DNA of 64,000 bases from Lachnospiraceae bacterium (GTDB lineage: Bacteria; Bacillota; Clostridia; Lachnospirales; Lachnospiraceae). The notes below the pieces were generated by a model, which worked only from the letters and a program-made list of their open reading frames with translations, had not been told where the DNA came from and made no database searches. Numbering within the stretch: the stretch's first letter is position 1; each line of letters starts with the position of its first letter. The stretch spans positions 11,060 to 75,059 of the forward strand of contig JAGBKB010000002.1 of the NCBI GenBank assembly GCA_017934175.1, in the 5' to 3' direction. The position numbers and the translations under genes were made by a program. Shown one piece after another: positions 3,070 through 59,895 of the stretch.

Positions 3070-3083
3070 AATTATTTTCTCCT

Positions 3084-3860: not shown

Positions 3861-4555
3861 CTCTTTTCAAGTTTCATTGATAAAACACTTATAGGCCAAC
3901 ATATTAAAAAGTATAGAATAAAGACTACCAAATAAACACCAAATGCTGCATTCTTACTTAACATACGATTAGCCTCTATAATTTGCTGTGCCACTTTTAT
4001 CATTTCAACAACTCCAATCATAAGTACTAAACTTGTAGTTTTTATCATTCTTGTGATTAGATTTATTGATATCGGTATAATTCTTCTTAGCGATTGTGGT
4101 AAAATTACATAAATGAATGTCTGTAATCTACTTAAACCAAGTGCCTCGGCACTTTCATATTGATGATTTGAAACACTTGAAAGAGAGCCTCGAACGATTT
4201 CACCCATTTCTGCTATACCCCAAAGTGAGAAAACAATTATAGCTGATAGTTCTCCAGTCAAGTTAATTCTAAATACTCTTGTACTACCGAAATACACAAT
4301 AAACAATAATACTAATTGTGGCATGATTCTTATAAAGTCAATATAGATTCTTGACACAACTCTAACCGCTATGTTTTTCTTTTGTATCAATATTCCAAAA
4401 GCTAACCCTAATGCAACACTAATTGCTATAGAAATTAAACTTATTTTAAGTGTCACTAAAAGCCCGCCCATTAGTCTTAAGAAATTATGGCCTTTAAATA
4501 AAACATCAATTCCTAAGTCTTTCACATAACTAAACATACTTGATTTTCCTTTCAA
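3851..4555 (-). CDS. Amino-acid ABC transporter permease
   Basis: 234-aa multi-TM ORF of the His/Glu/Gln/Arg-type permease family. Overlaps its neighbours, consistent with an operon. Confidence 0.85.
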   Translation of the reverse strand: MKGKSSMFSYVKDLGIDVLFKGHNFLRLMGGLLVTLKISLISIAISVALGLAFGILIQKKNIAVRVVSRIYIDFIRIMPQLVLLFIVYFGSTRVFRINLTGELSAIIVFSLWGIAEMGEIVRGSLSSVSNHQYESAEALGLSRLQTFIYVILPQSLRRIIPISINLITRMIKTTSLVLMIGVVEMIKVAQQIIEANRMLSKNAAFGVYLVVFILYFLICWPISVLSMKLEKRWK

Positions 4556-5192
4556 TCAAAATTCCTATAATCGATACAGGTAATAATATAATTAAATAGA
4601 AAAGCACTAACATCAACAAAGCTTCAATGGTATTATAATATATTCCAATTAAATCTTTTGCAGTAAACATCAAATCCATTATACTAATTGCCGAAAATAC
4701 TGATGTCTCCTTTAATAAAAATATAATGTTGGCAATTATTCCATGTAGACTTACTCTTATTGCTTGTGGCATAATTATATATATTATTGTTTGTAACTTA
4801 CTAAATCCTAAACTGTAAGCACTCTCTTTTTGGATTACATCTATAGCCTCTATTCCGCTTCTGAAGGTCTCTGCCATATAACTACCTCCCAAAAATGCGA
4901 GTCCTAAAATTGCGCACATTTCTGCCTTAATCGAAATGCCAACTTTAGGAAGTCCATAATAAATAAAGAATAATTGAATAATTAGTGGTGTATTTCTACT
5001 TAATTCTATATAGAACTTGGTAATATTTCTAAGCACTGGCACTTGATAAAAAGTAATTATAGTTAATGCTAAGCCAATAATAATTGCAAATATTATCCCT
5101 ATAATTCCTATTTTAAGTGTTAATATTGCTGCCTCCTTATAGAGTGGAAGAAATTTTATAATAAATTCATAATCCATGCTACATTTACACAC
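4530..5192 (-). CDS. Amino-acid ABC transporter permease
   Basis: 220-aa multi-TM ORF, paralog of the adjacent permease. The likely true start is ATG at 5177 (MDYEF...). Confidence 0.85.
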   Translation of the reverse strand: MCKCSMDYEFIIKFLPLYKEAAILTLKIGIIGIIFAIIIGLALTIITFYQVPVLRNITKFYIELSRNTPLIIQLFFIYYGLPKVGISIKAEMCAILGLAFLGGSYMAETFRSGIEAIDVIQKESAYSLGFSKLQTIIYIIMPQAIRVSLHGIIANIIFLLKETSVFSAISIMDLMFTAKDLIGIYYNTIEALLMLVLFYLIILLPVSIIGILIERKIKYV

Positions 5193-5202
5193 CCTTTCAC
5201 AA

Positions 5203-5233
5203 TAAAAAATGCTACGGACTCATTTTCCGTAGC
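5203..5233 (-). terminator. Intrinsic terminator inside the 5' leader of the ABC operon (attenuator)
   Basis: Minus strand GCTACGG-AAAATGAGT-CCGTAGC followed by ATTTTTTATT. It lies between the promoter or leader ORF and the operon start. Confidence 0.75.
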
Positions 5234-5262
5234 ATTTAACAAATATTATTTATTACTTCTAA

Positions 5263-5346
5263 CTATTTTTTGTATGCACACGAAAAATGAATTGCTTTCA
5301 TGCAACATACACAACAACTATTTAAATTTGCATATACTTTTTTCAT
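5263..5346 (-). CDS. Putative Cys-rich leader peptide (27 aa) MKKVYANLNSCCVCCMKAIHFSCAYKK
   Basis: My own translation of the minus strand, ATG 5346 to TAG 5263. Cys codons at positions 11, 12, 14, 15 and 23. The 3' codons overlap the antiterminator strand. Confidence 0.6.
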   Translation of the reverse strand: MKKVYANLNSCCVCCMKAIHFSCAYKK

Positions 5347-5363
5347 GTGAATTACCTACAATT

Positions 5364-5391
5364 ATTATATCATTATATAAAATAATGGCAA
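5364..5391 (-). promoter_or_regulatory. SigA-type promoter of the Cys leader / ABC operon
   Basis: TTGCCA(5391-5386)-16 nt-TGaTATAAT(5372-5364), 17 nt upstream of the leader ATG. Confidence 0.55.
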
Positions 5392-5433
5392 TACTTTTTT
5401 TCTCATTTAGGTTATATGTTTTATAACAACTTA

Positions 5434-5462
5434 TTGGAAATTTATATAAACTATAGTATAAT
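5434..5462 (+). promoter_or_regulatory. SigA-type promoter abutting the ttcA-like start (leaderless candidate)
   Basis: TTGGAA(5434-5439)-17 nt-TATAAT(5457-5462), then 6 nt to ATG 5469. No SD sequence. Confidence 0.55.
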
Positions 5463-6635
5463 TTGTATATGATAAAAAACATTCAAAATATAGAGATATG
5501 TATAAATGACTTTATGAATATCAAAGACAACAATGATGTTGTGGTTATTGATATGCGAAGTGATATTGAAAGGTCATACGGCAATATAAAAAATAGCATT
5601 CATCTTGATGGTGAAAATCTCAAAAATGACCCACCTCACGATGCAAATAAAAACTACATTATCTGTTGCTCTCGCGGAAAAACAAGCTATGAAATAGCAA
5701 AAGAACTTAGAGACAGCGGATTTTCAAACTATTATAGTCTAAAAGGTGGATACTCATCTTATGTACTTTATTTGATTAGAAATGATAAACAAAATGAATC
5801 TAATACTATTCTTTTAGACAAAGTTGAAAAATCAATACAAACTAAATTTAGAACAAATCTTATGTCTAATTTTCTAAAAGCAATAAAAACCTATAAGTTA
5901 ATAAATGAAAATGATAAAATTGCTATCTGCATATCAGGTGGCAAGGATAGTTTTCTTATGGCTATGCTATTTAGAGAATTAAAAAAATGGTCTAAGATTA
6001 ATTTTGATGTAGAGTATATATCTATGGACCCAGGATATAACGAAACTAATAGAAAATTAATTGAAGAAAATGCTAAGGCACTTGATATACCAATTAAAAT
6101 ATTTGAATCTGATATATTTGATATTGTGTACAATGAAGAAAAATCCCCTTGCTATCTATGTGCAAGAATGAGAAGAGGGCACCTATATGCATATGCTAAA
6201 AAAATATCATGCAATAAAATAGCACTTGCACACCACTATGATGATGTTATAGAAACAATTCTTATGGGTATGCTCTATGGCGGGCAAATGCAGTCTATGC
6301 TTCCTAGATTAAAAAGCACTAACTTTCAAGGAATGGAACTCATACGTCCACTATATCTTATAAGGGAAGATGACATAATAAATTGGCGAGATTATAATGA
6401 TTTACATTTTTTGCAATGTGCTTGTAAATTTATAGACACTTGCACAACTTGTAATAACAATGAAAATGCATCTAAAAGACTTGAAGTAAAAAAGATTATA
6501 AAAACTCTTAAAGAGAAAAATCCATATATAGAAAGCAACATCTTTAGGAGTGCTGAAAATGCACAAGTTGATACTCTTCTTTCTTACAAAATAAAAGGAG
6601 TGAAACACTCCTTTCTTGAAAATTTTGATGATTAA
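5463..6635 (+). CDS. ttcA: Rhodanese domain fused to a TtcA-family PP-loop tRNA thiolation ATPase
   Basis: The N-terminal ~100 aa are rhodanese-like (active-site-like CCSRGKTS). The rest has PP-loop SGGKDS and the TtcA-type CYLCARMRRG motif. The probable start is ATG 5469. Confidence 0.75.
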   Translation: MYMIKNIQNIEICINDFMNIKDNNDVVVIDMRSDIERSYGNIKNSIHLDGENLKNDPPHDANKNYIICCSRGKTSYEIAKELRDSGFSNYYSLKGGYSSYVLYLIRNDKQNESNTILLDKVEKSIQTKFRTNLMSNFLKAIKTYKLINENDKIAICISGGKDSFLMAMLFRELKKWSKINFDVEYISMDPGYNETNRKLIEENAKALDIPIKIFESDIFDIVYNEEKSPCYLCARMRRGHLYAYAKKISCNKIALAHHYDDVIETILMGMLYGGQMQSMLPRLKSTNFQGMELIRPLYLIREDDIINWRDYNDLHFLQCACKFIDTCTTCNNNENASKRLEVKKIIKTLKEKNPYIESNIFRSAENAQVDTLLSYKIKGVKHSFLENFDD

Positions 6636-6763
6636 TTAATATTATTTAAATTTTATCATTAATTCTTTTCCAGCATTCCATGCTTGTCTGGCTCTTTTAC
6701 CAGTAATATACCACTTTAAAATTAGTCAAATATAGGTACATTAAATTCAAAGAAAGTGTCAAT

Positions 6764-6903
6764 AATGACATAAATTCACTGCAACGAAGGTATTGATACA
6801 ACAAAAAAAACGCTAATATAAAGTATATTAGCGATTTTGATTTTATTTTTATTTCTCATACTGCTACTTTTTTAAAAGATTTTGCATAAAATAATTTAAA
6901 ATT
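6764..6903. repeat. Direct repeat copy A (left flank of island 1)
   Basis: AATGACATAAATTCACTGCAAC plus a 71-nt block GATTTTGATTTTATTTTT...TTTGCATAAA...TTTAAAATT, repeated at 12659-12754. Copy A has a 47-nt insertion carrying a hairpin. Confidence 0.8.
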
Positions 6904-6940
6904 ACATATTTTTCAAAAAGGTGTAAAAAAAAGTGTATAC

Positions 6941-6960
6941 TTTCTCTTGACTGATGCAAT
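6941..6960. repeat. Conserved 20-24 bp motif TTTCTCTTGACT(A/G)ATGCAAT, copy 1
   Basis: Near-identical copies at 43798-43818 and 45868-45892. Confidence 0.8.
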
Positions 6961-7001
6961 ACAGAACTATACTATATACTATATACTTTTTCGAGGCGCC
7001 T

Positions 7002-8066
7002 TTATTTTAGCGCAACCCATATTATAGGTCTAACCCCTTTATTACCATCAACAGATGACGAGCAAACCTTACCGTCTTCATTAATATAATTATATACATT
7101 GGTTCCATTTGTAAATTTTAACCAATACTCACAAAACTCATTTGCGTCAATATGTTCTTTTACTTTAGGAGATTCAATCATTAGCTTATTAAAGAGTGCA
7201 TGCATGCTACATCTTGCTTTTAAATACAAAATGTTTCTATTATTAAAATATTTGTCTATATCATCAGTAGTTAATAACGAGCAATATTCTCCATGTTCAT
7301 TAGAAATAATTGCAGTTTTTTCTTTTGATGAAAATATCTTATTATAATAATTGTCGTTAATAAAATGTTGCAAGTCACTATCATTCCAATTCAAATTTGT
7401 GTCTACACTATCAATTTTTTTCCAATCTAGTATTTTGCTACTTAACAATAGTGCTTTTGAGTTCTCTTTATATAATACTCTCCACTCAAGACGAGTGTCT
7501 ATAGACATAATTTGATTATATTTTCCAAAAAGAATTGTATCATTCTTATCATCATCGTCTTGTATTAAGTGTTTAGGAATTGTTTTTTTGCTATTAATTA
7601 TTAACCTTAATCCTCTTTTACTATCAACATCTAACTCATTATACTCCGAAAATATATCTAATACTTCTTCTTCACTTGTTTCTTCATCATTTCCTTCTTC
7701 GTATTTATCGTACCAATTACCTCCTTCGTCGCCTCCATTTGTTGTAAAAGTATGTACATAATCAATTCTATTACCTTTGGTGTCATAAATAGTCATCACT
7801 TTTCGACCATCACCTATTTGCAAACACCATAATTTGCCCTCTTTATCAAAATTAACCTCTTTAATTCTAACATTAGCATAAACAATATCTAATTCTTCTT
7901 CACTTAACTTATCATAATCAGCATAAGTCCCATATTCCTGCATTTCTAACTGCTGATATAATTCTAAAAACTTATTATTCAAAAAATCAGAGTTTTTATT
8001 ATTACATGATATTATTAACAAAAATACAATTATCATAACTGCTATGATTTTAAATCTTTTTATCAT
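7002..8066 (-). CDS. Lipoprotein with DUF6273-like C-terminal domain
   Basis: 354-aa ORF with a signal peptide and Cys (LIISCNN). The C-terminus ...NKGVRPIIWVALK is paralogous to the ORF at 43829-44668 (...CGVRPAMWVSLE). Confidence 0.7.
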   Translation of the reverse strand: MIKRFKIIAVMIIVFLLIISCNNKNSDFLNNKFLELYQQLEMQEYGTYADYDKLSEEELDIVYANVRIKEVNFDKEGKLWCLQIGDGRKVMTIYDTKGNRIDYVHTFTTNGGDEGGNWYDKYEEGNDEETSEEEVLDIFSEYNELDVDSKRGLRLIINSKKTIPKHLIQDDDDKNDTILFGKYNQIMSIDTRLEWRVLYKENSKALLLSSKILDWKKIDSVDTNLNWNDSDLQHFINDNYYNKIFSSKEKTAIISNEHGEYCSLLTTDDIDKYFNNRNILYLKARCSMHALFNKLMIESPKVKEHIDANEFCEYWLKFTNGTNVYNYINEDGKVCSSSVDGNKGVRPIIWVALK

Positions 8067-8227
8067 TTTAATTCCTCTTTTAATAAAAAATAATAACTAA
8101 TTTAATTATTCTAAATGCTAATTTTTTACACAATGAAATATTATGTATTTTTATATTTATATCACTAAGTGTTTAACAATTAAACAGAGTAGAATGCGAC
8201 TCTATTAAATCATTTTTTTTAATTCTT

Positions 8228-8965
8228 TTATTGTATATTAACCGAATAATCAGAATTAATATCTAAGCTACATTCTAATACCTTTCTTTCGTTAGTAGTA
8301 ATTGAATCATACTGCTGTAATATTTTTCTTTCATCATCAAAATCTACCTCTCTTTCAACCCCATCTTTTGTATGAATAATCTTCCTTTCCCAGTTATCTT
8401 TCTCAACTTTTATATACCCATCAAAAACCTTATCTATTAAAACTAATTTATTATCTTTCATTAAATAATAAGCATATTCATCAAAATCTATATTCCCTTT
8501 TGAGTGTTTGCATATGATGGAGTCACCAATTAATGTATAATAAGTATAATAACCTATTTCATGGTCACCAACACTATTAATTAAACAAAATGGTTTATCA
8601 TTATACATAGTAAACATATATAAAATAGTACCTTTATCTTTGTGTGTATATAAAATAATTTCATCAACCCCATTATTATCAATATCAAAAATGCTATAAT
8701 AACATTTATCAATACTTGATATCAAATTAGTCCAACCAGTATCATAATCACGATTAACATATTCATAATACTCATTTTTTAATAATTTAATTACATCATC
8801 ATAATTATTTATATTTTCAGGATTGCCACCATATATATTAATTGGTTCAATGGGATTTATTGAAGTGTCATTTAAAACTTTAGTAGTATTTAGCTTAGCA
8901 ACTTGAATTGTTCCACATGATGATAAACTCAAAACCATAAAAAGTATTAACATTTTTTTATACAT
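8228..8965 (-). CDS. Hypothetical lipoprotein
   Basis: 245-aa ORF with lipobox LSLSSCGT and a GAGGT RBS. No recognisable catalytic motif. Confidence 0.65.
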   Translation of the reverse strand: MYKKMLILFMVLSLSSCGTIQVAKLNTTKVLNDTSINPIEPINIYGGNPENINNYDDVIKLLKNEYYEYVNRDYDTGWTNLISSIDKCYYSIFDIDNNGVDEIILYTHKDKGTILYMFTMYNDKPFCLINSVGDHEIGYYTYYTLIGDSIICKHSKGNIDFDEYAYYLMKDNKLVLIDKVFDGYIKVEKDNWERKIIHTKDGVEREVDFDDERKILQQYDSITTNERKVLECSLDINSDYSVNIQ

Positions 8966-9183
8966 TATTTCTACCTCGCAAAATTAGACAAATATATATA
9001 CTATTGTTTAATTATATTATATCATAATATAAAAGATTACAATACTATTGTTTAAGATTTAGTCTATTAATAAAATAATATATAATATATACTAATAGTA
9101 TAATAATACCAACAATCAAATATAGCAATTCAGTTCTAAATCCAGCAATACACAAAAAACCATCAACACCATGAATTAATAAA

Positions 9184-9411
9184 TTAAACCATATTAATCT
9201 TAAGTGTCTTCCCAAGTGCACCAGATAACCTAATCAAAAAATCCACTGTATGATTATAATCGCCACTTTCAAATTTTGATATGCTTGACTTTGTTGTTCC
9301 CATTTTTTGAGCTACTTTTTCTTGGGTCATTTTCTTTTTAAGTCGTACATCAATAGCCTTTGATATCAATTCATATCTTGGCGCAAGTTCACCATACTTG
9401 GATTTCAACAT
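9184..9411 (-). CDS. XRE-family helix-turn-helix protein (antitoxin-like)
   Basis: 75-aa ORF with HTH KKKMTQEKVAQKMGTTKSSISKFESG. A 20-codon ORF remnant lies directly upstream. Confidence 0.75.
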   Translation of the reverse strand: MLKSKYGELAPRYELISKAIDVRLKKKMTQEKVAQKMGTTKSSISKFESGDYNHTVDFLIRLSGALGKTLKINMV

Positions 9412-9488
9412 CTAACTATTATTAAACAATTCTCTTTTAACACTTGCATGACTTTCGAAGCATCTATTTATCATTTTCTTTACTTTAA

Positions 9489-10334
9489 TTAATAATAATA
9501 GTCAAATATCTTTGCTTGCAAAAATGATATTACTTTTCTATGTAAGTTCTTTATTCTATTATATGTTTCTATCATCTTGTTGTAATTCGCATTGGTTTTA
9601 ACATTATTAATTATCAAGTTGTTAATTTCCATTTTCTTTTTAATCTCTATATTATTATGTAATAAATTATCAACTAATTTATCATTGTTTTTATCAACAC
9701 AATCATACAATATACTTCCACAATTACAAGGAATGAGAATACCTATATGCTTTTCATTTAATATTTTCGTTATTTCAATATATAACTCATTTTCACTAGT
9801 TTCATAAAAATTAAAATACTCATCATAACTATCAAATATTTCATTCATATAATTATTCAATAAACTATCAACAAGCAGACTTCTGTAATCATGTTGTATA
9901 TCATGCCATAATTTATATATTGGATGTTTAATTATCGTTTGCCTTTCTGTCTCTTTTTCTATATAAGAAACAAAATGCTCATTTATAATTTCATTGTTAA
10001 TATAAAACATCCGTAATACTTCATTGTATATTTCTATTTTAACTTTATCATACTCTCGTTTTTTATCTTTATGCCTGAAATATAATAACGTAATAAAAGA
10101 AAAAGATGATGACATGACCAAAGTAAAAATTGATATTTTAACTGTTAGATCTATGCTATACATTAATCCTTTCTTTGAAAACAACAACAATATCGCAAAA
10201 ATATCCGCTAAAAATATAATAAAAAAACCAATTATAAAACCCATTGAATTACCCAAATATGTTAATGAGCATATTTTATTAATAGTTTCATCTATAAGTA
10301 TAAATCTTTTTCTCAATAATCTTTTATTCATCAA
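9489..10334 (-). CDS. Hypothetical membrane protein (2-3 N-terminal TM helices plus a helical cytoplasmic domain)
   Basis: 281-aa ORF starting 4-7 nt after the stop of the AlbA_2 gene with no RBS of its own, so probably coupled. The likely start is ATG 10331. Confidence 0.65.
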   Translation of the reverse strand: MMNKRLLRKRFILIDETINKICSLTYLGNSMGFIIGFFIIFLADIFAILLLFSKKGLMYSIDLTVKISIFTLVMSSSFSFITLLYFRHKDKKREYDKVKIEIYNEVLRMFYINNEIINEHFVSYIEKETERQTIIKHPIYKLWHDIQHDYRSLLVDSLLNNYMNEIFDSYDEYFNFYETSENELYIEITKILNEKHIGILIPCNCGSILYDCVDKNNDKLVDNLLHNNIEIKKKMEINNLIINNVKTNANYNKMIETYNRIKNLHRKVISFLQAKIFDYYY

Positions 10335-10338
10335 TACT

Positions 10339-11790
10339 TTATCCTACCCCACCACTAATATATCTCTGCTTCGCACTTCTAGGCTTATCTGGAATTGTCA
10401 ACTCTATTTTGCCCTTTTCAATCAATCCTTTTAACAATACATTTATAATATAAAAATACGATAAATTCATATAGTCTACTATTTCTTGTCTTGTTCTCGG
10501 CTTTACACAATAGTTTATAATTTTCTCTTCTAAATCTTTCCTCTTTGATCGTCTAAACTCATCCTTCGTTTCACCACTATTATAAAATATAACTACAAAC
10601 TCTCCATTTTCAACTTTAAACACTGGCATTTTTAATTTTGCTTCTTCAAATAATTGCCTTATCCTTGGTATGCCAGAATATCTATTCTCTGTAATCCCTA
10701 ATATTTCCAATGCATTTGCAAGAGCTTCATTTCTCGTATTAATATTCACTCGCCCAAGATTCTCAATTGGCTCATTTCCATATATTCCACCTGGATTTTT
10801 AATTTCCATTCTATCCGAATACATTTCTAATGATATAGGAGTACCTTCAGTATAAATACTATAATCACGATGCACCAATGTGTTTAATATTGCCTCTCTA
10901 ACTGCTTCCATAGGATATTCTGTTCTTGTTATACGTCTCCCATCTGAATTAATAACTATAGGTTTCTTTGAATTTTTTTCGACAAATGCTATTGCCTCAT
11001 CTAACATTTCTTGAATTGGACCCATAATTCTTTTATCATCTAAAAATCTTTCGTTAATTTCATTTGACATGCCCTTTACAATTCCAGGAATAGCCATTGC
11101 TATGATTGAGAACTGTTTAAATTTTTCTTGTGGAAAATTTGAGAATAGTAATAACCCAGCAATCGTCCAATGATTATCATGTTTTAATCCCATTACTTCT
11201 AAAACTTTTTCATCTGTCATAGTTTTCTGAAAATTCGGTCTATCTTTTTTTACTTTATTCAAATATTCTTCAACTAATGCTTTATTAATTAATGTCTCAT
11301 CTACCCCCTCAACTATTCTTTCATCATCTTTAATTCGCTTTTTATATGCTTCATAACTATAGACTTCATATGGGGACATTTTTTCATCTCGATCCCCAAC
11401 TCTTTTATATGAACCATTTATCACACCACTACCCTTATAATATACTGGTCTCTCATATATATCTACACCAGGAACCTCAGCACAAACAACTGTTTTCCCG
11501 TCTATTACCGCACTTGAAATAATGGCATTTACATTGGGATACATTTCTTTACATTGCTTTTGAATATTCAATCGTAAAGAAGTTGCATCCTTTACTCCGC
11601 AGATATCAAAGTTATCTGTTTCGTTTATACCAAAAACAATTATTCCACCACCATCTTGATTCGAAAACGACGACAATGTATTATAAATATTTGGAATTCC
11701 ACCTTTAGCAGATTTTAACTCCAAATAATTATCCTCTGTTTTAGAGGCCTTTACATTATTTATTAACTTTATTAAATCTTGCTCAACCAT
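10339..11790 (-). CDS. AlbA_2 (Schlafen-like) / HATPase_c_4 / wHTH protein (COG2865-type putative DNA-binding ATPase)
   Basis: 483-aa ORF. N-terminus has ...LELKSAKGG...GGGIIVFGI. The central region REAILNTLVHRDYSIYTEGTPISLEMYSDRMEIKNPGG matches the family signature. C-terminal wHTH-like tail. Confidence 0.8.
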   Translation of the reverse strand: MVEQDLIKLINNVKASKTEDNYLELKSAKGGIPNIYNTLSSFSNQDGGGIIVFGINETDNFDICGVKDATSLRLNIQKQCKEMYPNVNAIISSAVIDGKTVVCAEVPGVDIYERPVYYKGSGVINGSYKRVGDRDEKMSPYEVYSYEAYKKRIKDDERIVEGVDETLINKALVEEYLNKVKKDRPNFQKTMTDEKVLEVMGLKHDNHWTIAGLLLFSNFPQEKFKQFSIIAMAIPGIVKGMSNEINERFLDDKRIMGPIQEMLDEAIAFVEKNSKKPIVINSDGRRITRTEYPMEAVREAILNTLVHRDYSIYTEGTPISLEMYSDRMEIKNPGGIYGNEPIENLGRVNINTRNEALANALEILGITENRYSGIPRIRQLFEEAKLKMPVFKVENGEFVVIFYNSGETKDEFRRSKRKDLEEKIINYCVKPRTRQEIVDYMNLSYFYIINVLLKGLIEKGKIELTIPDKPRSAKQRYISGGVG

Positions 11791-11796
11791 AGCTTA

Positions 11797-11824
11797 ATTA
11801 TACCACAATTTCATAATATGTCAA
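11797..11824 (-). promoter_or_regulatory. Near-consensus promoter abutting the AlbA_2 gene start (leaderless candidate)
   Basis: TTGACA(11824-11819)-16 nt-TGgTATAAT(11805-11797), then 6 nt (TAAGCT) to ATG 11790. No SD. Confidence 0.65.
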
Positions 11825-11827
11825 TAT

Positions 11828-11910
11828 ATATCTTGATATAATTTATATTATCTTGATATAATTTATATTATCTTGATATAATATCTTGACAAGATAATAT
11901 ACCAAGATAT
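11828..11910. repeat. Tandem 20-bp repeats / ATCTTG-CAAGAT motif array
   Basis: ATCTTGATATAATTTATATT x2, then ATCTTGATATAAT, the palindrome ATCTTGaCAAGAT (11882-11894), and CCAAGAT. Confidence 0.85.
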
Positions 11911-11957
11911 TTAATTATGGTACTCAATCCTTAGATCAATAGTAGGATACTGCTGTT

Positions 11958-12569
11958 TCATATTTGCATAATTTTTTTAATTACATCTCGTATCCATATA
12001 GTTGTATTCTTTGATTCTTCTAAAATGACTTGCTTCTCTTTTCTCTTATAATGCTTTTTTAATTTAGTAATTATATCACCATTTATATTATCTCTTCCTA
12101 TTGCCTTTAATGCTTGAATAAGTATTTTTGTATTCTCCGACATACCAACCAATTCTTTGCTTGCCCTATGGTTAAATTCTATCGTAACATTATTAATATT
12201 ATACTTTTTATATGGGCCAGTGCTAACATAAGACCAATTTGCTGGTACTTGAGTTGACAATGACAATATATTTAATGCTGCATTACCATCAGGAGCAATT
12301 CCCCATTTTAAACCTCTCGCAATTGCCTTTGCTATCTCATTTGGATAAGGAACTGCATACTCATTTATAGCCTTACTATATTTTGGCTTATCGTACACTC
12401 CTCTTAACACTCTTCTAATAACGCCTCTTTTTTCTAGCGTTTGTGCATTCTTTTTAACATTTTCATAATCTAAATCATCAGTAAAATCCGACAACATAAA
12501 TGCAGAGCCATAAGGCATACTTTCAATATATTTATTCATTTTTTCAATTTTAATAGTATCTATATTCAC
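11958..12569 (-). CDS. DUF6088 / AbiEi-like antitoxin-domain protein (orphan)
   Basis: 203-aa ORF resembling AbiEi_4/DUF6088 proteins (...VIRRVLRGVYDKP...). No AbiEii nucleotidyltransferase is adjacent. The probable start is an internal ATG (MNKYIESMPYG). TGA stop. Confidence 0.6.
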   Translation of the reverse strand: MNIDTIKIEKMNKYIESMPYGSAFMLSDFTDDLDYENVKKNAQTLEKRGVIRRVLRGVYDKPKYSKAINEYAVPYPNEIAKAIARGLKWGIAPDGNAALNILSLSTQVPANWSYVSTGPYKKYNINNVTIEFNHRASKELVGMSENTKILIQALKAIGRDNINGDIITKLKKHYKRKEKQVILEESKNTTIWIRDVIKKIMQI

Positions 12570-12658
12570 TAATATTATATATAATTAGGGAATGATTGTC
12601 GACCATCAATTCTCTTAGGATCGAGTTAAACATTTGTTATATTTCACATATTTCCCAC

Positions 12659-12754
12659 AATGACACAAATTCACTGCAACATAGATTTTGATTTTATTTT
12701 TGATTTCTTAACTTATACTTTTTTGAAAGATTTTGCATAAACATATTTAAAATT
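12659..12754. repeat. Direct repeat copy B (right flank of island 1)
   Basis: By eye, roughly 85% identical to 6764-6785 plus 6833-6903. Confidence 0.8.
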
Positions 12755-12780
12755 TGTGAACAACTAAAGGGTCTAATTTT

Positions 12781-12823
12781 GTAAAAATTTACGCTGTAAA
12801 AATTTACGCTGTAAAAATTTACT
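12781..12823 (+). repeat. Tandem 15-bp repeat GTAAAAATTTACGCT x2.8
   Basis: Perfect copies at 12781-12795 and 12796-12810, and a partial copy at 12811-12823, ending 1 nt (A12824) before the hydG -35 box. Confidence 0.85.
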
Positions 12824-12824
12824 A

Positions 12825-12852
12825 TTGAAAAGTTACTTGTTTTTGATATAAT
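12825..12852 (+). promoter_or_regulatory. hydG promoter
   Basis: TTGAAA(12825-12830)-16 nt-TGaTATAAT(12844-12852). Confidence 0.55.
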
Positions 12853-12972
12853 AATATACAATAAAATCGTTACTCTGATTCCGAAGATTTTTCTAAGGGA
12901 AAAGGTACAAATTATTTACCCAAAATTTTATTCTATATACTATTAATTATTAGTATATGCTTTTTATAATTT

Positions 12973-12996
12973 GTTACCTCCCAAGGTAACTTTTTT
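12973..12996 (+). terminator. Promoter-proximal hairpin plus T-run in the hydG leader (attenuator / anti-SD)
   Basis: GTTACC-TCCCAA-GGTAAC followed by TTTTTT, 30 nt upstream of ATG 13026. CCTCCCA within it is complementary to the hydG RBS TGGGAGG. Confidence 0.5.
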
Positions 12997-13025
12997 ATTT
13001 TAAGAAAAAATCTGGGAGGAAAAAT

Positions 13026-14441
13026 ATGTATAATCCAAAGTCATTGAAAGCTGAAGAGTTTATATCTGATGAAGAAATTAAAGAAACACTAGAATATGCT
13101 GAAAAGAACAAAAACAATTTGCAACTAGTAGACGAGATACTTGAAAAAGCAAAATTAAGGAAAGGGCTAAGTCATAGAGAAGCATCTGTGTTACTTGCTT
13201 GTGAAGACACAGAAAAAGTAAAACTTATGTATGACCTAGCTGAACAAATCAAAAAAGATTTTTATGGCAATCGTATAGTTATGTTTGCACCACTTTACCT
13301 ATCAAACTATTGTGTAAATGGTTGTCTCTACTGCCCATATCACCAAAAAAATAAAACTATTCCAAGAAAAAAATTAACACAAGAAGAAATCAAGAAAGAA
13401 GTTATAGCCCTTCAAGATATGGGACACAAAAGGCTAGCAATTGAGTCAGGCGAAGACCCAGTTAATAATCCAATAGAATATATATTAGAAAGTATAAAAA
13501 CCATTTATTCTATTAAACATAAAAATGGTGCTATCCGCCGTGTAAATGTAAATATAGCTGCTACAACAGTTGAAAATTATAGAAAATTAAAAGAAGTTGG
13601 CATTGGTACTTACATTTTATTCCAAGAAACTTACGACAAAAAAGCTTATGAATATTTACATCCAACTGGTCCAAAACATGATTACTGCTACCATACTGAA
13701 GCTATGGATAGAGCAATGGATGGTGGTATAGATGATGTCGGTATAGGTGTACTTTTTGGACTTGATAAATACAAATATGAATTTGCAGGACTTCTTATGC
13801 ATGCAGAACATCTTGAGGCAGTCCACGGAGTTGGTCCTCATACTATTTCTGTACCAAGAGTTAAACCTGCAGATGACATTGATCCAAACGACTTTGATAA
13901 TTCACTTAGTGATGAAATGTTTTGCAAAATTGCAGCACTCATAAGAATTGCCGTGCCATATACTGGCATGATAATATCAACTCGTGAAACTCCTGCGGTT
14001 CGTGAAAAAATTATAAGACTTGGCATTAGTCAAATTAGTGGTGGTTCAAGAACATCTGTCGGAGGATATGCTGAAGAAGAAAGGCCTCATGATACAGAGC
14101 AATTTGATGTATCAGATAATAGAACTCTTGATGAAGTTGTTAATTGGCTTATGACGGCTGGGTACATACCTTCATTTTGTACTGCATGTTATAGGCAAGG
14201 AAGAACTGGTGATAGATTTATGTCACTATGTAAGTCAGGACAAATTCAAAACTGTTGTCACCCAAATGCACTCATGACACTTAAAGAATATCTTATAGAC
14301 TATGCTAGTCCTGAAACACGAAAAATTGGTGAAGCTCTTATAGAAAAAGAAATTGACAATATTGGTAAACCAGAACTTCGTCCAAAAGTTAGAGAAGAAC
14401 TTAAAAAAATAGAAGGTGGCACTAGAGATTTATACTTCTAA
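13026..14441 (+). CDS. hydG: [FeFe]-hydrogenase maturase HydG (radical SAM tyrosine lyase)
   Basis: 471-aa ORF with the radical-SAM motif CVNGCLYCPY and the C-terminal Cys cluster CTACYRQGRTGDRFMSLCKSGQIQNCCHPN typical of HydG rather than ThiH. Confidence 0.85.
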   Translation: MYNPKSLKAEEFISDEEIKETLEYAEKNKNNLQLVDEILEKAKLRKGLSHREASVLLACEDTEKVKLMYDLAEQIKKDFYGNRIVMFAPLYLSNYCVNGCLYCPYHQKNKTIPRKKLTQEEIKKEVIALQDMGHKRLAIESGEDPVNNPIEYILESIKTIYSIKHKNGAIRRVNVNIAATTVENYRKLKEVGIGTYILFQETYDKKAYEYLHPTGPKHDYCYHTEAMDRAMDGGIDDVGIGVLFGLDKYKYEFAGLLMHAEHLEAVHGVGPHTISVPRVKPADDIDPNDFDNSLSDEMFCKIAALIRIAVPYTGMIISTRETPAVREKIIRLGISQISGGSRTSVGGYAEEERPHDTEQFDVSDNRTLDEVVNWLMTAGYIPSFCTACYRQGRTGDRFMSLCKSGQIQNCCHPNALMTLKEYLIDYASPETRKIGEALIEKEIDNIGKPELRPKVREELKKIEGGTRDLYF

Positions 14442-14446
14442 TAAAA

Positions 14447-14473
14447 AGGGGTTGCTTATAAAAAAGCAACCCC
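14447..14473. terminator. Hairpin between convergent hydG and metA
   Basis: GGGGTTGCTT / AAGCAACCCC 10-bp stem. The T-run is on the minus-strand side. Confidence 0.6.
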
Positions 14474-14506
14474 GTCACTAAATCTCCAAATTTTATTTTC
14501 TATCAC

Positions 14507-15430
14507 TTATGTGAGCCCTATACTCTCTATGTTATAAGGCGTCTCTTGATATACTATGTAATTTAACCAATTTGAATAAAATAGATTTGCATGAGCTCTC
14601 CATTTAACTATTATGTCATTTTTAGGATCGTCATTCACAAAATAGTTTTCAGGTACTTTTATAGGGAGGCCTTTACTTACATCTCTGTCATACTCATTTT
14701 TTAAGGTGTCTATATCATACTCCGAATGTCCAAATACAAATATCTTCTTGCCATTTTTTGTAAATACTATATTTACACCTGCCTTATCTGATTCTGCAAG
14801 TATTTTAAGTTCTGAAATTTTTTCTATGTCACTTTTCTTTACTGTAGTGTGCCTTGAATGAGGCACATAAAAAGCGTCATCAAAACCTCTAAGTAAGATT
14901 GCATTTTTATAAATTACTTTATGCTCAAAAATTCCAAATAATTTTTCATCAAGTTTATATTTTTTTATTCCATAATGATGATACAAACCGGCCTGAGCAC
15001 CCCAACAAATATGTAAAGTACTATATACATTTTTATTAGTCCAGTCCATTATCTCACACAGTTCATCCCAATAATCTACATCTTCAAATTCTAAATGCTC
15101 AACTGGTGCACCAGTGATTATGCATCCGTCATATTTATTATTTTTTATCTCATCAAATGACTTGTAAAAATTTTGAAGATGCTCTATACCTGTATTATGT
15201 GGGATATGACTCTTCGGAGCAAGTAATTCTAAATCTATTTGAAGAGGAGTATTGCCAAGAACTCTTGCAAACTGAGTTTCTGTTTGTATCTTGGTAGGCA
15301 TAAGATTTACGAGTAAAATTTTTAGCGGTCTTATGTCTTGAGTCTCAGCTCTTAATTTTGTCATTACAAATATATTTTCATTTTCAAGAATCTTTTTAGC
15401 TGGTAAATTATCTGGAATTTTAATTGGCAT
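14507..15430 (-). CDS. metA: Homoserine O-acyltransferase MetA
   Basis: 307-aa ORF with N-terminus [11 protein letters not shown]...[10 protein letters not shown], characteristic of MetA (HTS family). Confidence 0.92.
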
Positions 15431-15515
15431 AAATTTCTCCTAACTACATATATCTATTTTAAGGGCTCGCATAGCTCGCCCCTACAATTAGGCGGATGGT
15501 ATCTGCCCCCTACGA

Positions 15516-16790
15516 TTAAATGCTATCAAGCGCATTTTTTACATCTTCAAGTAAGTCGTCGCCATTTTCAATACCTACACTAAGTCTAACCATACCTGCT
15601 GATACACCTGCAGCAACTAATTGCTCATCAGTTAATTGTCTGTGAGTAGTTATAGATGGTGCGAGGCAACAACTTCTCGCATCAGCTACATGAGTTTCAA
15701 TAGCTATGAGTTTAAGTGTCTTCATAAATTTCTCTGCTGCTTCTCTTCCACCATTTAAATCAAAACTTATAACTCCACAAGTTCCATTTGGCAAATATTT
15801 CTCAATCAAATCATGATGTTCAAAACTCTTCAAGCCTGGATATTTAATTGATTTTACCTTATCACTCTTTTCAAGATACTCTGCCACCTTTTGTGCGTTT
15901 TTACAATGAGCTGGTATTCTCACATGTAAACTTTCTATGCCGAGGTTTAAATAAAAAGCATTTTGTGGGCTTTGGATAGAACCTAAGTCTCTCATAAGCT
16001 GCGCAGTAGCCTTAGTTATAAATGCACCCTCTTTTCCAAATGCTTCTGCATATACTAAACCATGATAACTATCATCTGGAGTTGTAAGTCCTGGAAATTT
16101 ATCCTTATGTGCCATCCAGTCAAATTTTCCAGAATCAACTATAGCACCACCAACTCCCACTCCGTGTCCATCAAGATATTTAGTAGTTGAATGAGTTACT
16201 ATATCTACACCAAATTCAATTGGTCTACAATTTATAGGAGTAGGGAAAGTATTGTCAACTATTACTGGAATTCCTGCTTCATGAGCTACCTTTACAAATT
16301 TTTCAAAATCAAATACGTCAAGAGATGGATTTGCAATGGTTTCACCAAATATTAATTTTGTATTTGGCCTAATGGCTTTTCTAATTGTATCTTCATCACT
16401 ATAAGGTGGTATAAATGTAGTTTCTATACCCATCTTTTTTAAAGTAACGGCAAATAAATTAAATGTACCACCATAGATAGCACTTGTACTTATCAAATGG
16501 TCTCCTGCATTACAGAGATTAAATACAGCGAAGAAGTTTGCTGCTTGACCTGATGATGTTAACATTCCTGCTACTCCACCTTCAAGTTCAGTTATTTTTT
16601 TTGCTACATAATCATTAGTTGGATTAGAAAGCCTTGTATAAAAATAGCCTGCGGCCTCTAAATTAAATAATTTCCCCATAAACTCACAAGTGTCAAACTT
16701 AAATGTAGTTGACTGAACTATAGGCACCTGCCTTGGCTCAGCATTTCCTGGTTTGTAACCACCCTGAATACAAATTGTTTCTTTTTTCAT
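15516..16790 (-). CDS. metY: O-acetylhomoserine sulfhydrylase (aminocarboxypropyltransferase) MetY
   Basis: 424-aa Cys/Met-metabolism PLP enzyme with the STTKYLDGHG PLP-lysine motif. AAGGAGG RBS. Confidence 0.9.
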   Translation of the reverse strand: MKKETICIQGGYKPGNAEPRQVPIVQSTTFKFDTCEFMGKLFNLEAAGYFYTRLSNPTNDYVAKKITELEGGVAGMLTSSGQAANFFAVFNLCNAGDHLISTSAIYGGTFNLFAVTLKKMGIETTFIPPYSDEDTIRKAIRPNTKLIFGETIANPSLDVFDFEKFVKVAHEAGIPVIVDNTFPTPINCRPIEFGVDIVTHSTTKYLDGHGVGVGGAIVDSGKFDWMAHKDKFPGLTTPDDSYHGLVYAEAFGKEGAFITKATAQLMRDLGSIQSPQNAFYLNLGIESLHVRIPAHCKNAQKVAEYLEKSDKVKSIKYPGLKSFEHHDLIEKYLPNGTCGVISFDLNGGREAAEKFMKTLKLIAIETHVADARSCCLAPSITTHRQLTDEQLVAAGVSAGMVRLSVGIENGDDLLEDVKNALDSI

Positions 16791-16810
16791 AAGTTTCCTC
16801 CTTAAGAATT

Positions 16811-16841
16811 AAAAAATGCTACGGGTTTAATTTCCCGTAGC
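16811..16841 (-). terminator. Intrinsic terminator inside the metY-metA leader (attenuator)
   Basis: Minus strand GCTACGGG-AAATTAAA-CCCGTAGC followed by ATTTTTTAATT, about 20 nt upstream of the metY ATG. Confidence 0.75.
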
Positions 16842-16870
16842 ATTTTCAAAATAAGATTAATTTACCATTT

Positions 16871-16954
16871 TTATTTGCACACGGAAAATAGAGATGAATA
16901 ACACATCCCCATCATCATAGCTGCAAATTCATTTGTTTTATAAACGCTTTTCAT
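16871..16954 (-). CDS. Putative Met-rich leader peptide (27 aa) MKSVYKTNEFAAMMMGMCYSSLFSVCK
   Basis: My own translation of the minus strand, ATG 16954 to TAA 16871. ATG ATG ATG GGG ATG TGT at 16918-16901. The 3' codons overlap the antiterminator strand. Confidence 0.6.
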   Translation of the reverse strand: MKSVYKTNEFAAMMMGMCYSSLFSVCK

Positions 16955-16961
16955 ATTTAGA

Positions 16962-16990
16962 ATTATACCCTTTTTTACCATCTAATTCAA
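16962..16990 (-). promoter_or_regulatory. Promoter of the Met leader / metY-metA operon
   Basis: TTGAAT(16990-16985)-17 nt-TATAAT(16967-16962), then 7 nt to the leader ATG. No SD. Confidence 0.6.
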
Positions 16991-17045
16991 TAACTTATAT
17001 TTTATATGTTATATACTATATAAACTGAAAACGCGGCTATAGTCA

Positions 17046-22730: not shown

Positions 22731-23219
22731 TTAATCTCTCTTCCCCATAGCCTTATCTAATTCATAAAGGGCTGCTGGGTCTTTTCCATATTTTTCAAAT
22801 TTGTCAATTAACTCTTGTGCATTTTCTTCTTCTTCGCACTGTTCTTTTATGAACCAATCCATAAATTGCATAGTACGATAATCTTTTTCCTCCATAGCCA
22901 CTTTATAAATGTTGTGAATTAAACTTGTCACATATTGCTCATGCTTTAACCCTTCTTTTAATACTTGAAGTTCATCAGTAAGTGCTACACCTGGCTTTGC
23001 GATAGCAAGAAGTTCTACTGCTTCATTATTTGCATGAATGTAATCGTAAATCTTAAATGCATGCTCCATTTCTTCTTCTGCTTGTTTTTTATACCATGCT
23101 GCAAAACCACCTAAACCTTTTCCTCCCATAAAACCTGAAAAGTCAAGATAAAGATATGCTGAATACATCTCCTTATTTACTTGGTCATTTAATAATGCCT
23201 TTACTTTTTCATTTAACAT
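22731..23219 (-). CDS. Non-heme ferritin
   Basis: 162-aa ferritin-like ORF (LNDQVNKEMYSAYLYL..., EEMEHA). Confidence 0.85.
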   Translation of the reverse strand: MLNEKVKALLNDQVNKEMYSAYLYLDFSGFMGGKGLGGFAAWYKKQAEEEMEHAFKIYDYIHANNEAVELLAIAKPGVALTDELQVLKEGLKHEQYVTSLIHNIYKVAMEEKDYRTMQFMDWFIKEQCEEEENAQELIDKFEKYGKDPAALYELDKAMGKRD

Positions 23220-59752: not shown

Positions 59753-59895
59753 TTTCCCTACCCTCTTATATTATATTTGTAATATTATACATATAAATAG
59801 CAAATATATCAATGCAGATATTCCCCATAAAAAGTGTTGACTTATTACACTTTTTTGGGTGAAATATAGTAATAAATCACATTTTTTCACTAAAA

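Follow-up and report, generated by a model that had tools for sequence, protein, structure and literature searches.

The classical leaders of Proteobacteria (trpL, hisL, leuL, thrL, pheL and ilv) combine a short ORF carrying a cluster of cognate codons with a terminator and an antiterminator that exclude each other, the position of the ribosome deciding between the two. To our knowledge, they are not homologous to one another and have no common expression platform. In Firmicutes, where leader peptides are used beside T-boxes and riboswitches, the leu/phe leader of Lactococcus constitutes Rfam family RF01743. Further examples are the His leader of the hisZ/hisS paralogues in bacilli (PMC2965389) and, in Staphylococcus aureus, a Leu-rich attenuator peptide for ilvBNC (PMC5794164). 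Cysteine is sensed through runs of Cys codons in short upstream ORFs, at several loci, by the leaderless polycysteine ORFs of mycobacteria (the 'Cys ribulon'; Canestrari et al., bioRxiv 10.1101/834739) and by actinobacterial Cys leader peptides (PMC1262725). In Rhodobacterales, cysS is preceded by the uORFC-8-2 motif, whose tandem Cys codons and terminator stem belong to a predicted ribosome-mediated attenuator (PMC8632094). The T-box (RF00230) has the same signal (tRNA charging), terminator/antiterminator output and gene targets, but reads uncharged tRNA directly through a structured RNA of ~200 nt, without translation.

Two elements, cysL (5346..5263) and metL (16954..16871), were found on the minus strand of the window (the whole 64 kb stretch of DNA analyzed), upstream of an amino-acid ABC transporter operon and of metY-metA, respectively (Table 1). 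We estimate a probability of about 0.8 that they are paralogous members of one family of ribosome-mediated (leader-peptide) transcription attenuators, belonging to one clade of uncultured rumen Lachnospiraceae/Clostridia. The sequence comparisons support the interpretation of the first-pass annotation, which had described them as one scaffold with swapped regulatory codons. With respect to the proteobacterial leaders, the family shows no sequence or Rfam similarity, belongs to a Firmicute clade, would sense amino acids outside the classical set (Cys, Met and Asn), and contains leaders of different specificity that are clearly homologous and built on one expression platform. Some members are apparently leaderless, as the mycobacterial elements are, but here canonical intrinsic terminators are combined with an antiterminator, and the specificities include Met and Asn beside Cys. 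The uORFC-8-2 motif differs in its host (Alphaproteobacteria), its target (a tRNA synthetase gene), its single specificity and its unrelated sequence. The Firmicutes leader peptides concern other amino acids and sequences, none being described as one platform re-coded for several, and, unlike T-boxes, the elements found here contain neither a specifier nor a T-box sequence. At gathering score no Rfam family matched the window or 14 related loci. In the cysL leader region, scanning at a permissive threshold gave only chance-level matches (best E ~1) and no T-box. Rfam 15 holds no family matching these attenuators, and no description of them was found in the literature searched.

Table 1. Coordinates of the features of the cysL and metL loci in the window.
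Feature	Position	Strand	Basis or remark
cysL upstream inverted repeat, GTTATAAAACATATAAC	5411..5427	-	ATAAC end 19 nt before -35 hexamer
cysL promoter, TTGCCA-16-TATAAT	5364..5391	-	11/12 matches, TG before -10
cysL leader ORF, 27 codons + stop, MKKVYANLNSCCVCCMKAIHFSCAYKK	5263..5346	-	ORF reading
cysL regulatory block, TGT TGT GTA TGT TGC	5302..5316	-	Cys codons 11, 12, 14, 15
cysL region 2 (antiterminator strand), CAUUUUUCGUGUGCAU	5274..5289	-	within ORF, codons 20-25
cysL regions 3 + 4, predicted intrinsic terminator, AAAUGCUACGGA-loop-UCCGUAGCAUUU + U tract	5202..5237	-	
Putative cysL-controlled operon: 2 permeases, ATPase, substrate-binding protein (polar-amino-acid ABC transporter)	2179..5192	-	
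metL upstream motif, TTATATAGTATATAAC	17008..17023	-	ATAAC end 17 nt before -35 hexamer
metL promoter, TTGAAT-17-TATAAT	16962..16990	-	promoter scoring
metL leader ORF, 27 codons + stop, MKSVYKTNEFAAMMMGMCYSSLFSVCK	16871..16954	-	ORF reading
metL regulatory block, ATG ATG ATG GGG ATG	16904..16918	-	Met codons 13-15, 17
metL region 2, UAUUUUCCGUGUGCA	16876..16890	-	frame differs: F S V C (metL) vs F S C A (cysL)
metL regions 3 + 4, predicted intrinsic terminator, GAAAAUGCUACGGG-loop-CCCGUAGCAUUUUU + U tract	16809..16847	-	
Putative metL-controlled operon, metY + metA	14507..16790	-	
metY, O-acetylhomoserine sulfhydrylase	16790..15516	-	TIGR01326, 563 bits
metA, homoserine O-acetyltransferase	15430..14507	-	NF047918, 501 bits

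Both loci contain a promoter, an ORF of 27 codons that includes a run of Cys or Met codons, the segment UUUU(U/C)CGUGUGC and an intrinsic terminator GCUACGG/CCGUAGC, so that the leaders, conserved segment and terminators of the first-pass annotation are all present. The interval that it gave (5203-16990) holds both elements, but ~9 kb of unrelated genes lie between them. The conserved segment has only two exact matches in the window, TTTTTCGTGTGCA (5275-5287) and TTTTCCGTGTGCA (16876-16888). The near-identical terminator stems were likewise confirmed, the pattern GCTACGG-loop-CCGTAGC occurring exactly twice in 64 kb (5211-5233 and 16818-16841) with 0 occurrences expected from 100 shuffles. The two copies have an identical 9-bp core, and both hairpins were called terminators by scoring, with 12 (cysL) and 14 (metL) pairs and a T tract. 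A sigma-70-type promoter of good quality precedes each leader, and both leaders fold much more strongly than shuffled sequences (z = -4.96 and -4.64). When the window was scanned with a covariance model of the family, only the cysL and metL sites scored (98.7 and 81.2 bits); the next matches (29 and 23 bits) were the antisense of the metL terminator or a generic terminator. In cysL, 17 nt with a weak AGGT Shine-Dalgarno separate the promoter from the ATG. In metL, only 7 nt lie between the -10 and the ATG, with no Shine-Dalgarno; its mRNA is therefore probably leaderless. The transporter is predicted, by reading of the leader, to carry cystine or cysteine. Cystine-transporter models were among the top matches to its proteins, but with scores under their cut-offs. 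The next gene after this operon is mnmA (1042-2130).

In the mechanism that we propose, a constitutive-looking promoter would produce a transcript with an ORF of 23–32 codons. With plentiful cognate aminoacyl-tRNA, the ribosome would pass the codon block and reach region 2 (the segment UUUU(U/C)CGUGUGC within the ORF) and the stop codon. Region 2 would then either lie under the ribosome or be taken back by a partner upstream of it, which according to the class is the 5' AUGAAAAAUG or the segment of the codon run (both are alternative partners in cysL). Region 3 would consequently pair with region 4 (GCUACGG/CCGUAGC plus the U tract) and transcription would end before the operon. With scarce Cys-tRNA (cysL) or elongator Met-tRNA (metL), the ribosome would stall on the run, 13–20 nt upstream of region 2, the Cys block being the proposed stall site in cysL. 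The stalled ribosome would mask the upstream partner and leave region 2 naked to pair with the newly made region 3; no terminator would form and RNA polymerase would enter the ABC transporter operon or metY-metA. Met starvation should also reduce the charging of initiator tRNA, which could blunt a Met-sensing leader. Folding of the free RNA gave an upstream hairpin and the terminator in all 14 members tested, and the Met block of metL pairs in it with CAUCUCUAU downstream. If the nucleotides under a run-stalled ribosome are masked, the antiterminator between regions 2 and 3 forms before region 4 is made (about -9 to -23 kcal/mol). Once region 4 exists the terminator usually beats the antiterminator thermodynamically, and the model therefore requires kinetic trapping, as in the trp operon. 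The computational analysis shows the sequence parts and their conservation, the covariation of the two alternative helices and the fit of codon class to pathway; that ribosomes stall, that the helices compete kinetically, that transcription does terminate and where it starts are inferred.

Control could instead act mainly on translation of the first gene or on mRNA stability, as with the mycobacterial polycysteine ORFs, rather than on termination. Several members look leaderless as those elements do, and the terminators of the window end close to the first start codon: ~10 nt (GTG start) to 25 nt (ATG start) from the first permease for cysL, and ~19 nt from the metY ATG for metL. However, all members carry an intrinsic terminator of the canonical kind (a G+C-containing stem of 9–14 bp followed by 5–7 U), the hairpin does not include the Shine-Dalgarno of the downstream gene, and at the metQ loci 71–90 nt separate the terminator from the gene, which makes this reading very improbable.

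A lineage-specific modular family with more members elsewhere had been anticipated, and 24 complete members (11 Cys, 10 Met and 3 Asn) were found among rumen Lachnospiraceae/Clostridia MAGs and in metagenomes. Pattern scans, run on genomes as well as metagenomes, accounted for 17 further loci, including new operon types (cysK-cysE and metQ) and the Asn specificity. The Cys-run leaders precede the ABC transporter or cysK-cysE, the Met-run leaders metY-metA or metQ, and the third, Asn-run class asnB (asnB-dapF) or glutamine synthetase-asnB. The codon class of the run fits the pathway in 24/24 members. The identical length of 27 codons is true of cysL and metL but coincidental, the family ranging from 23 to 32 codons. 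The cysL leader has orthologues or paralogues at L016-L018, L021, L023, L024, L028, L029, L041 and L042. A metagenome search with the terminator alone returned eight matches, all in an attenuator context upstream of a fitting gene and seven with a complete leader ORF, the other (L025) being cut by the contig end. MetY orthologues located by protein alone, without leader patterns (L011, L012 and L014; 92, 87 and 80% identity), all keep the Met-run leader, region 2 and terminator; the Cys-run leader is kept at two permease orthologues (L041 and L042; 88 and 79%) and the leader at one AsnB orthologue (L033), likewise independently of the search patterns. At the asnB of a relative with 75% identity (L037), a T-box occupies the same place (91.5 bits, E = 6e-21), which suggests replacement of another mechanism.

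The identical terminator core of the two window copies and the restriction of the family to one narrow clade, among the genomes and metagenomes scanned, would also be expected of a recently duplicated or hitch-hiking promoter-terminator cassette without regulatory role, its Cys and Met runs arising by chance. That explanation is hardly credible and effectively refuted by the conservation data, as leaders are kept at orthologous positions (79–92% protein identity) with compensatory changes. Moreover, Cys makes up 1.37% of residues in the long ORFs of the window, so that four Cys in five codons have a probability of ~2e-7 per 5-codon window, and the agreement between class and pathway would be left to chance.

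Covariation was analyzed in an alignment of 23 sequences. In the terminator 95.7% of alignment cells are paired, and in the antiterminator (regions 2 and 3) 97.6%, each with three pairs changed on both sides; 29–58% of cells pair when the partner is slid by 1–3 columns. Two of the three doubly changed antiterminator pairs use terminator-loop positions outside any search pattern. A G-to-A change in region 3 of L042 is matched by C to U in region 4 and improves the pair with region 2. Compensatory changes keep both terminator and antiterminator. The members are closely related, and for this reason these counts represent few independent events. As to the co-ordinated antiterminator differences noted earlier between cysL and metL, pairing is indeed preserved, but different base pairs are changed (U.G to C-G and U-A to U.G), and true double compensatory changes are visible only when more members are compared. 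The helix of the 5' AUGAAAAAUG with region 2 pairs in 93.6% of cells (40–69% when slid). The anti-antiterminator differs between classes, as does the segment that partners the run, and for the metY class the anti-antiterminator consensus has five pairs only.

The ORFs are conserved, with an N-terminus (MK.V[YF]) and a C-terminal motif (FSCA) that are partly shared, and might therefore encode small peptides with a function of their own, expressed together with the operons, such as RiPP precursors or Cys-rich peptides with metal or redox activity. Against this, region 2 is read in two frames, which give FSCA in some members and F(V/S)VC-type sequences in others, and is therefore constrained as RNA. 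The common MK-VY start, present as MK-V(Y/F), is best explained by pairing between AUGAAAAAUG and region 2 and not by the peptide, since substitutions there alter the amino acid and keep the pairing. A strong terminator between ORF and operon and the free variation of length and sequence outside the run likewise make a peptide function extremely improbable.

Conservation of GCUACGG and UCGUGUG exceeds what base pairing requires, the two being invariant in the three amino-acid classes down to 79–80% identity of the neighboring proteins, and a motif with consensus TTATAT-N4-5-TATAAC stands at a fixed position upstream. Of the 17 promoters detected, 11 have the ATAAC end of this motif at exactly 17 nt from the -35, on its upstream side, and three more have it at 18–19 nt, among them cysL (19), where the repeat GTTATAAAACATATAAC is a candidate operator or activator site common to the family. 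Such inputs common to the loci would suit a trans-acting factor (an RNA-binding protein or small ligand) switching the module of regions 2, 3 and 4, with the short ORFs secondary or incidental. Part of the invariance is an ascertainment effect, because the patterns used to find most members fixed the core of these regions. One common factor would leave unexplained both the run/pathway agreement and the constant location of region 2 within the ORF at ribosome-footprint distance from the run, and the Rfam scans given above yielded no known element; we regard a trans-acting switch as improbable.

For ribosome-mediated attenuation, regions 2, 3 and 4 appear to be re-used with a Cys, Met or Asn block at at least six operon types. 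The idea of reprogramming by the codon block alone holds in part: the block is swapped between classes, but the partner segment of the run is also class-specific. Refutation had been expected from a lack of further members or of conservation, or from a functionless local duplication; further members were found, relatives retain the leaders, and such a duplication does not account for the similarity. As far as sequence can tell, the mechanism is classical ribosome-mediated attenuation; the apparent novelty lies in the re-coding of a single platform for three amino acids, including versions that would sense Met and Asn.

The first-pass annotation had described cysL and metL, the two minus-strand leader ORFs with a run of Cys or Met codons, as paralogous attenuators built on one scaffold with swapped regulatory codons. 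Both elements are real, since the ORF, a promoter-like site, a terminator and the shared segments were found at each of the two sites (see the table). The terminators, said to be nearly identical, do share GCTACGG-loop-CCGTAGC, which occurs twice in the window (0 expected), and the exact segment TTTTYCGTGTGCA was seen in the window at the cysL and metL sites only. Both leaders fold into structures far more stable than those of shuffled sequence (z = -4.96 for cysL and -4.64 for metL). A search of the window with a covariance model made from 20 cores (model R1, filters off) scored cysL at 98.7 bits and metL at 81.2 bits and revealed no further family member; a 23-bit match at 59828-59904 corresponds to an ordinary terminator. 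A generic script for a short ORF with an amino-acid run, followed by a terminator, recovered cysL and metL together with two extra matches in the window, one at 22862..22731 and the other at 46588..46547, the latter being a false positive made of the 3' end of a gene and its terminator.

Features of the cysL and metL loci in the window
Feature	Coordinates	Strand	Remarks
cysL leader ORF	5346..5263	minus	encodes MKKVYANLNSCCVCCMKAIHFSCAYKK
cysL promoter-like site	5391..5364	minus	TTGCCA-16-TATAAT
cysL terminator	5237..5202	minus	12-pair stem and U tract
cysL-controlled operon	5192..2179	minus	two permeases, ATPase, binding protein (polar-amino-acid ABC transporter)
mnmA	1042-2130	minus	tRNA-thiolation gene at end of cysL operon
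metL leader ORF	16954..16871	minus	encodes MKSVYKTNEFAAMMMGMCYSSLFSVCK
metL promoter-like site	16990..16962	minus	TTGAAT-17-TATAAT
metL terminator	16847..16809	minus	14-pair stem, then U tract
metY	16790..15516	minus	downstream of metL
metA	15430..14507	minus	downstream of metY

Cystine-transporter models are among the top matches of the transporter encoded in the cysL operon, with scores below their cut-offs. This operon is flanked by two tRNA-thiolation genes, mnmA and a rhodanese-TtcA-like fusion (5463-6635, plus strand) that is divergent from cysL, so that sulfur use is a theme of the locus. In L041 (1-840), a close relative, metA ends about 150 nt before the promoter region of cysL, which makes metY-metA and the cysL-ABC operon neighbours there. 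In the window the two are separated by about 9 kb (5463-14441) containing the rhodanese-TtcA-like gene, lipoprotein-like ORFs, an AAA/HTH-type protein, a DUF6088 protein and hydG; by comparison with L041, this stretch has the appearance of an insertion or rearrangement specific to the lineage.

The source of the window is an uncultured organism of the rumen, and sequences identical to its MetY were found in ruminant metagenome assemblies only. Three MetY orthologues (92, 87 and 80% identity) were fetched by protein alone, independently of the RNA. All of them show a Met-run leader at the same place (MNNRFATILFELAHMMMWMKHHYFSCANLS, MMKIFGTSLFADMMMEMCCHLFFPCADKY and MKNLFETIAKMLYYMYMMMQPRPHYFSCAIVK) and keep both the segment TTTTYCGTGTGC and the GCTACGG/CCGTAGC terminator. 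The permease orthologues carry the leaders MRNVYANLNSCCVCCMKAIHFSCAYKK (88% identity) and MKNSFAKFNACCCCCSCAVYFSCAD (79% identity), in both cases with an altered terminator in which pairing is intact. Therefore, neither cysL nor metL is a private accident of this genome, and the leaders are conserved in these relatives. No leader was seen at L038 (MetY relative, 73% identity), which is also devoid of Rfam elements, or at L034 (AsnB relative, 85% identity), where the gene lies behind a glutamine synthetase-ANTAR pair. At L040 (1-2475; MetY 83% identity) metY directly follows cysK-cysE in a single cluster, cysK-cysE-metY-metA, with no intergenic leader before metY (the DNA fetched stops short of the region upstream of cysK).

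The modular family with further members that had been suspected now comprises 24 complete members in Cys, Met and Asn classes, each with a short ORF between a promoter-like site and the first structural gene. The Cys class (11 members, run pattern CC.CC) precedes genes for an ABC transporter or cysK-cysE, the Met class (10 members, MMM.M) precedes metY-metA or metQ, and the Asn class (3 members, N5-6) precedes asnB-dapF or glutamine synthetase-asnB; codon run and downstream pathway match in 24 of 24. Given that Cys, Met and Asn represent 1.37%, 2.72% and 6.6% of the residues in the long ORFs of the window, these runs are far from chance. The leader ORFs, with 23-32 codons, are shorter than what gene callers usually accept, and the contigs inspected carry no gene call for any of them.

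Most members were found by patterns fixing the conserved core. A scan of 185,579 species genomes, in which CGTGTGC and the exact terminator core were required, gave 9 loci, distributed over 8 rumen MAGs with the labels Lachnospiraceae, Clostridia or Clostridiales, with Cys-run leaders upstream of cysK-cysE or an ABC permease gene and Met-run leaders upstream of the gene for the MetQ lipoprotein; as a consequence of the fixed elements, the Asn class and diverged loci such as L041 and L042 were missed. A metagenome scan with the terminator alone returned 8 loci, all 8 in attenuator context before a matching gene, which argues that the terminator sequence is not a generic repeat; the leader ORF is complete in 7 of them and L025 is cut by the contig end. 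The Asn-run leaders are MKRLFKKNNNNNNFNCRTAIHFSCET, upstream of asnB-dapF-LL-DAP aminotransferase, MRKMYQKQNNNNNVNCKFAIHFSCET, upstream of the gene for a 699-residue glutamine synthetase followed by asnB, and a third one, MKIFFNKKNNNNNNINNNCRHAIHFSYET, found with an AsnB orthologue of 89% identity. The clade holding the family is narrow, with neighbouring proteins at least 79% identical.

Covariation was analysed on 23 aligned cores. In the terminator helix, whose arms are regions 3 and 4, 95.7% of the cells are paired and three pairs are changed on both sides, for example with compensation from A-U to G-C at the outer stem in nine sequences and from G-C to A-U in L042. The antiterminator is a proposed 15-pair helix between region 2 (CAUUUUUCGUG-U-GCAU), placed inside the leader ORF, and region 3 (AUGC-UACGGAAAAUG). 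Here 97.6% of the cells are paired and three pairs are changed on both sides; slid-partner controls (1-3 columns) gave 29-58%. Two of the compensatory antiterminator pairs fall on terminator-loop nucleotides that lie outside all search patterns and are not needed by the terminator. In L042 the change of GG to GA in region 3 is compensated by CC to UU in region 4 (one A-U and one G.U pair), and the earlier U.G pair of region 3 with region 2 becomes U-A. Region 2 reads F-S-C-A in the Cys class, the Asn class and some Met members, and, with the frame shifted by one base, F-V-C or S-V-C in metL and the leaders of metQ; this use of two frames places the constraint on the RNA and not on the peptide.

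As a result of this RNA conservation, one Cys codon is present in region 2 of every leader, Met and Asn classes included (5277-5279 and 16877-16879 in the window). A Cys-starved ribosome stalled at this point would cover region 2 and favour termination, and the codon may thus link the Met and Asn operons to cysteine supply as a form of built-in cross-talk.

On the sensor side, region 2 or the codon run has a pairing partner in every class, although the partners differ and show little independent covariation. The AAU/AAC run of the Asn leaders pairs with AUUAUU(A/G)UUA directly after the stop codon, with one U-A to C-G compensation that matches an AAC codon. In the metY leaders GAUG, part of the run, pairs with CAUC immediately before region 2; the partner of the run in the metQ leaders is UCGUGUGCA itself. 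The ORFs of the Cys class and of most other members begin with ten nucleotides (AUGAAAAAUG) complementary to region 2 (CAUUUUUCGU); 93.6% of the cells of this helix are paired versus 40-69% when slid, and substitutions in the 5' segment (AAAAAU to AAAGGU, and G to A opposite C to U) alter the residue and keep the pairing. Judged from the sequences, this segment appears to be an RNA mimic of region 3 and not a conserved peptide. The complementarity and the pairing-preserving substitutions explain the MK-VY start noticed in the first-pass annotation: the segment is indeed common to the leaders, but the reason is its pairing with region 2. The class-specific partners in turn amend the proposal that re-coding took place by the codon block alone, as regions 2-4 did stay fixed but the complementary partner was swapped together with the codon block.

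The family most likely works by classical ribosome-mediated attenuation, a textbook mechanism, in which we infer ribosome stalling, the kinetics of the switch and termination as follows. With charged tRNA available, the ribosome would pass region 2 and reach the stop codon, 3-15 nt further, and region 2 would be either covered or re-captured by its upstream partner; with region 2 unavailable the terminator would form and the operon would be off. When Cys-, Met- or Asn-tRNA is limiting, the ribosome would stall on the run, whose last codon is placed 13-20 nt before region 2, and would mask the upstream partner. Region 2 could then pair with the emerging region 3, and the polymerase would read through. 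Folding of the free RNA gave the upstream hairpin plus the terminator in 14 of the 14 members tested. When the stretch under a run-stalled ribosome was masked, the region 2:3 helix was the minimum-free-energy nascent fold before region 4 (about -9 to -23 kcal/mol). With region 4 included, the terminator is in most cases more stable than the antiterminator, so that the proposed switch would have to be kinetic, as in the trp operon.

Inspection of the upstream DNA showed an imperfect inverted repeat, TTATAT-N4-5-TATAAC, at 5411-5427 and 17008-17023 (minus strand) in the window and at the same position in L011, L012, L014, L018-L020, L022-L024, L026 and L029-L031. Of the 17 promoters detected by the script, 11 have the end of ATAAC exactly 17 nt, and three others 18-19 nt, upstream of the -35 hexamer; a spacing of 17 nt was also read by eye for L020, L023 and L030. 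At the Asn loci the ATAAC position is occupied by ATA(C/T)C. Being common to Cys, Met and Asn members, the repeat is not amino-acid specific, and it is tempting to speculate that it is an activator site centred near -61, e.g. for a LysR-type regulator. In the metY-type leaders, two metQ leaders and the Cys leader of L042, just 6-9 nt lie between the end of the -10 hexamer and the ATG of the leader, without a Shine-Dalgarno sequence (window 16954-16967 for metL; L011, L012, L014, L020, L030 and L042), and these ORFs are therefore probably on leaderless mRNAs. The other members have 17-20 nt from the -10 to the ATG and an AGGT or AAGGAG Shine-Dalgarno. Several leader promoters in these genomes, which are A+T-rich, are closely preceded by G+C-rich palindromes, such as GTAGGGGCGAGC..GCGAGCCC and GGGGCGGAT..ATCCGCCC (L014 270-365; L019 and L022, at about 60-100 nt before the leader ATG; L023; L034 1115-1165); these palindromes resemble REP-like repeats or terminators of the upstream genes.

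Leader peptides are rare in Firmicutes. No Rfam 15 family was matched at gathering score in the window or in 14 related loci, which holds for SAM (S-box) and other sulfur-metabolism riboswitches, and no covariance-model match was obtained in the window for the Rfam Trp, His, Leu, Thr and Phe leaders or the leu/phe leader. The T-box (RF00230) had no match at gathering score in the window, nor was it found when the cysL region (5100-5500) was scanned permissively (E up to 10); the matches there were at chance level, the best being PyrG_leader with 19 bits against a gathering score of 65. A T-box is present before asnB at L037 939-1166 (75% AsnB identity; RF00230, 91.5 bits, E = 6e-21, just under the gathering score of 93) and served as positive control; its position suggests that a T-box was replaced by an Asn leader peptide, or the reverse. 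Leader peptides with a Cys run have been described in Actinobacteria, without terminators, and in mycobacteria act on the translation of the next gene (PMC1262725; bioRxiv 10.1101/834739). The leaders described here do not belong to this polycysteine short-ORF type, as canonical terminators are present and the downstream Shine-Dalgarno is outside the hairpin; the leaderless geometry of the mycobacterial ORFs is common only to some members. A Cys attenuator has been predicted before cysS in Rhodobacterales (PMC8632094), and a His leader peptide in bacilli (PMC2965389) and a Leu-rich ilv attenuator in S. aureus (PMC5794164) are documented. Our full-text literature search on Cys, Met and Asn leader peptides in Firmicutes, Clostridia and Lachnospiraceae returned related systems; this family was not described in any of the results, and neither a leader-peptide attenuator with a Met or Asn run nor a family with one platform across specificities turned up. 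The lack of earlier reports on leader peptides that sense Met or Asn, in Rfam 15 and in the literature searched, is only absence of evidence.

The computational evidence supports a paralogous, re-codable family of leader-peptide attenuators sensing Cys, Met and Asn. With a probability of roughly 0.6, we read it as one recently diversified cassette (fixed-position upstream operator, promoter, leader ORF and invariant antiterminator/terminator) that was re-coded for Cys, Met or Asn at no fewer than six operon types, displacing T-box or riboswitch control in one clade of rumen Lachnospiraceae. These would then be the first Met-codon and Asn-codon leader-peptide transcription attenuators, some of them on leaderless transcripts, and a natural demonstration that swapping the codon block and its partner switches the specificity of an attenuator. 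The compact platform (about 145 nt) could serve synthetic biology as a programmable amino-acid sensor. Since translation initiation also needs Met-tRNA, a Met sensor is conceptually awkward and thus a useful test case. From their leaders, the ABC transporter after cysL is predicted to be a cysteine or cystine importer, and glutamine synthetase is predicted to be co-regulated with asnB by Asn. To our knowledge, no relationship can be seen among the known attenuators for different amino acids. In this family the paralogues are recognizable, and the evolutionary route between specificities can therefore be read directly: the expression platform was kept, and the codon run and its pairing partner were swapped. 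The family also points to an exchange between T-box or riboswitch control and leader peptides inside Firmicutes, for which the asnB case allows either direction.
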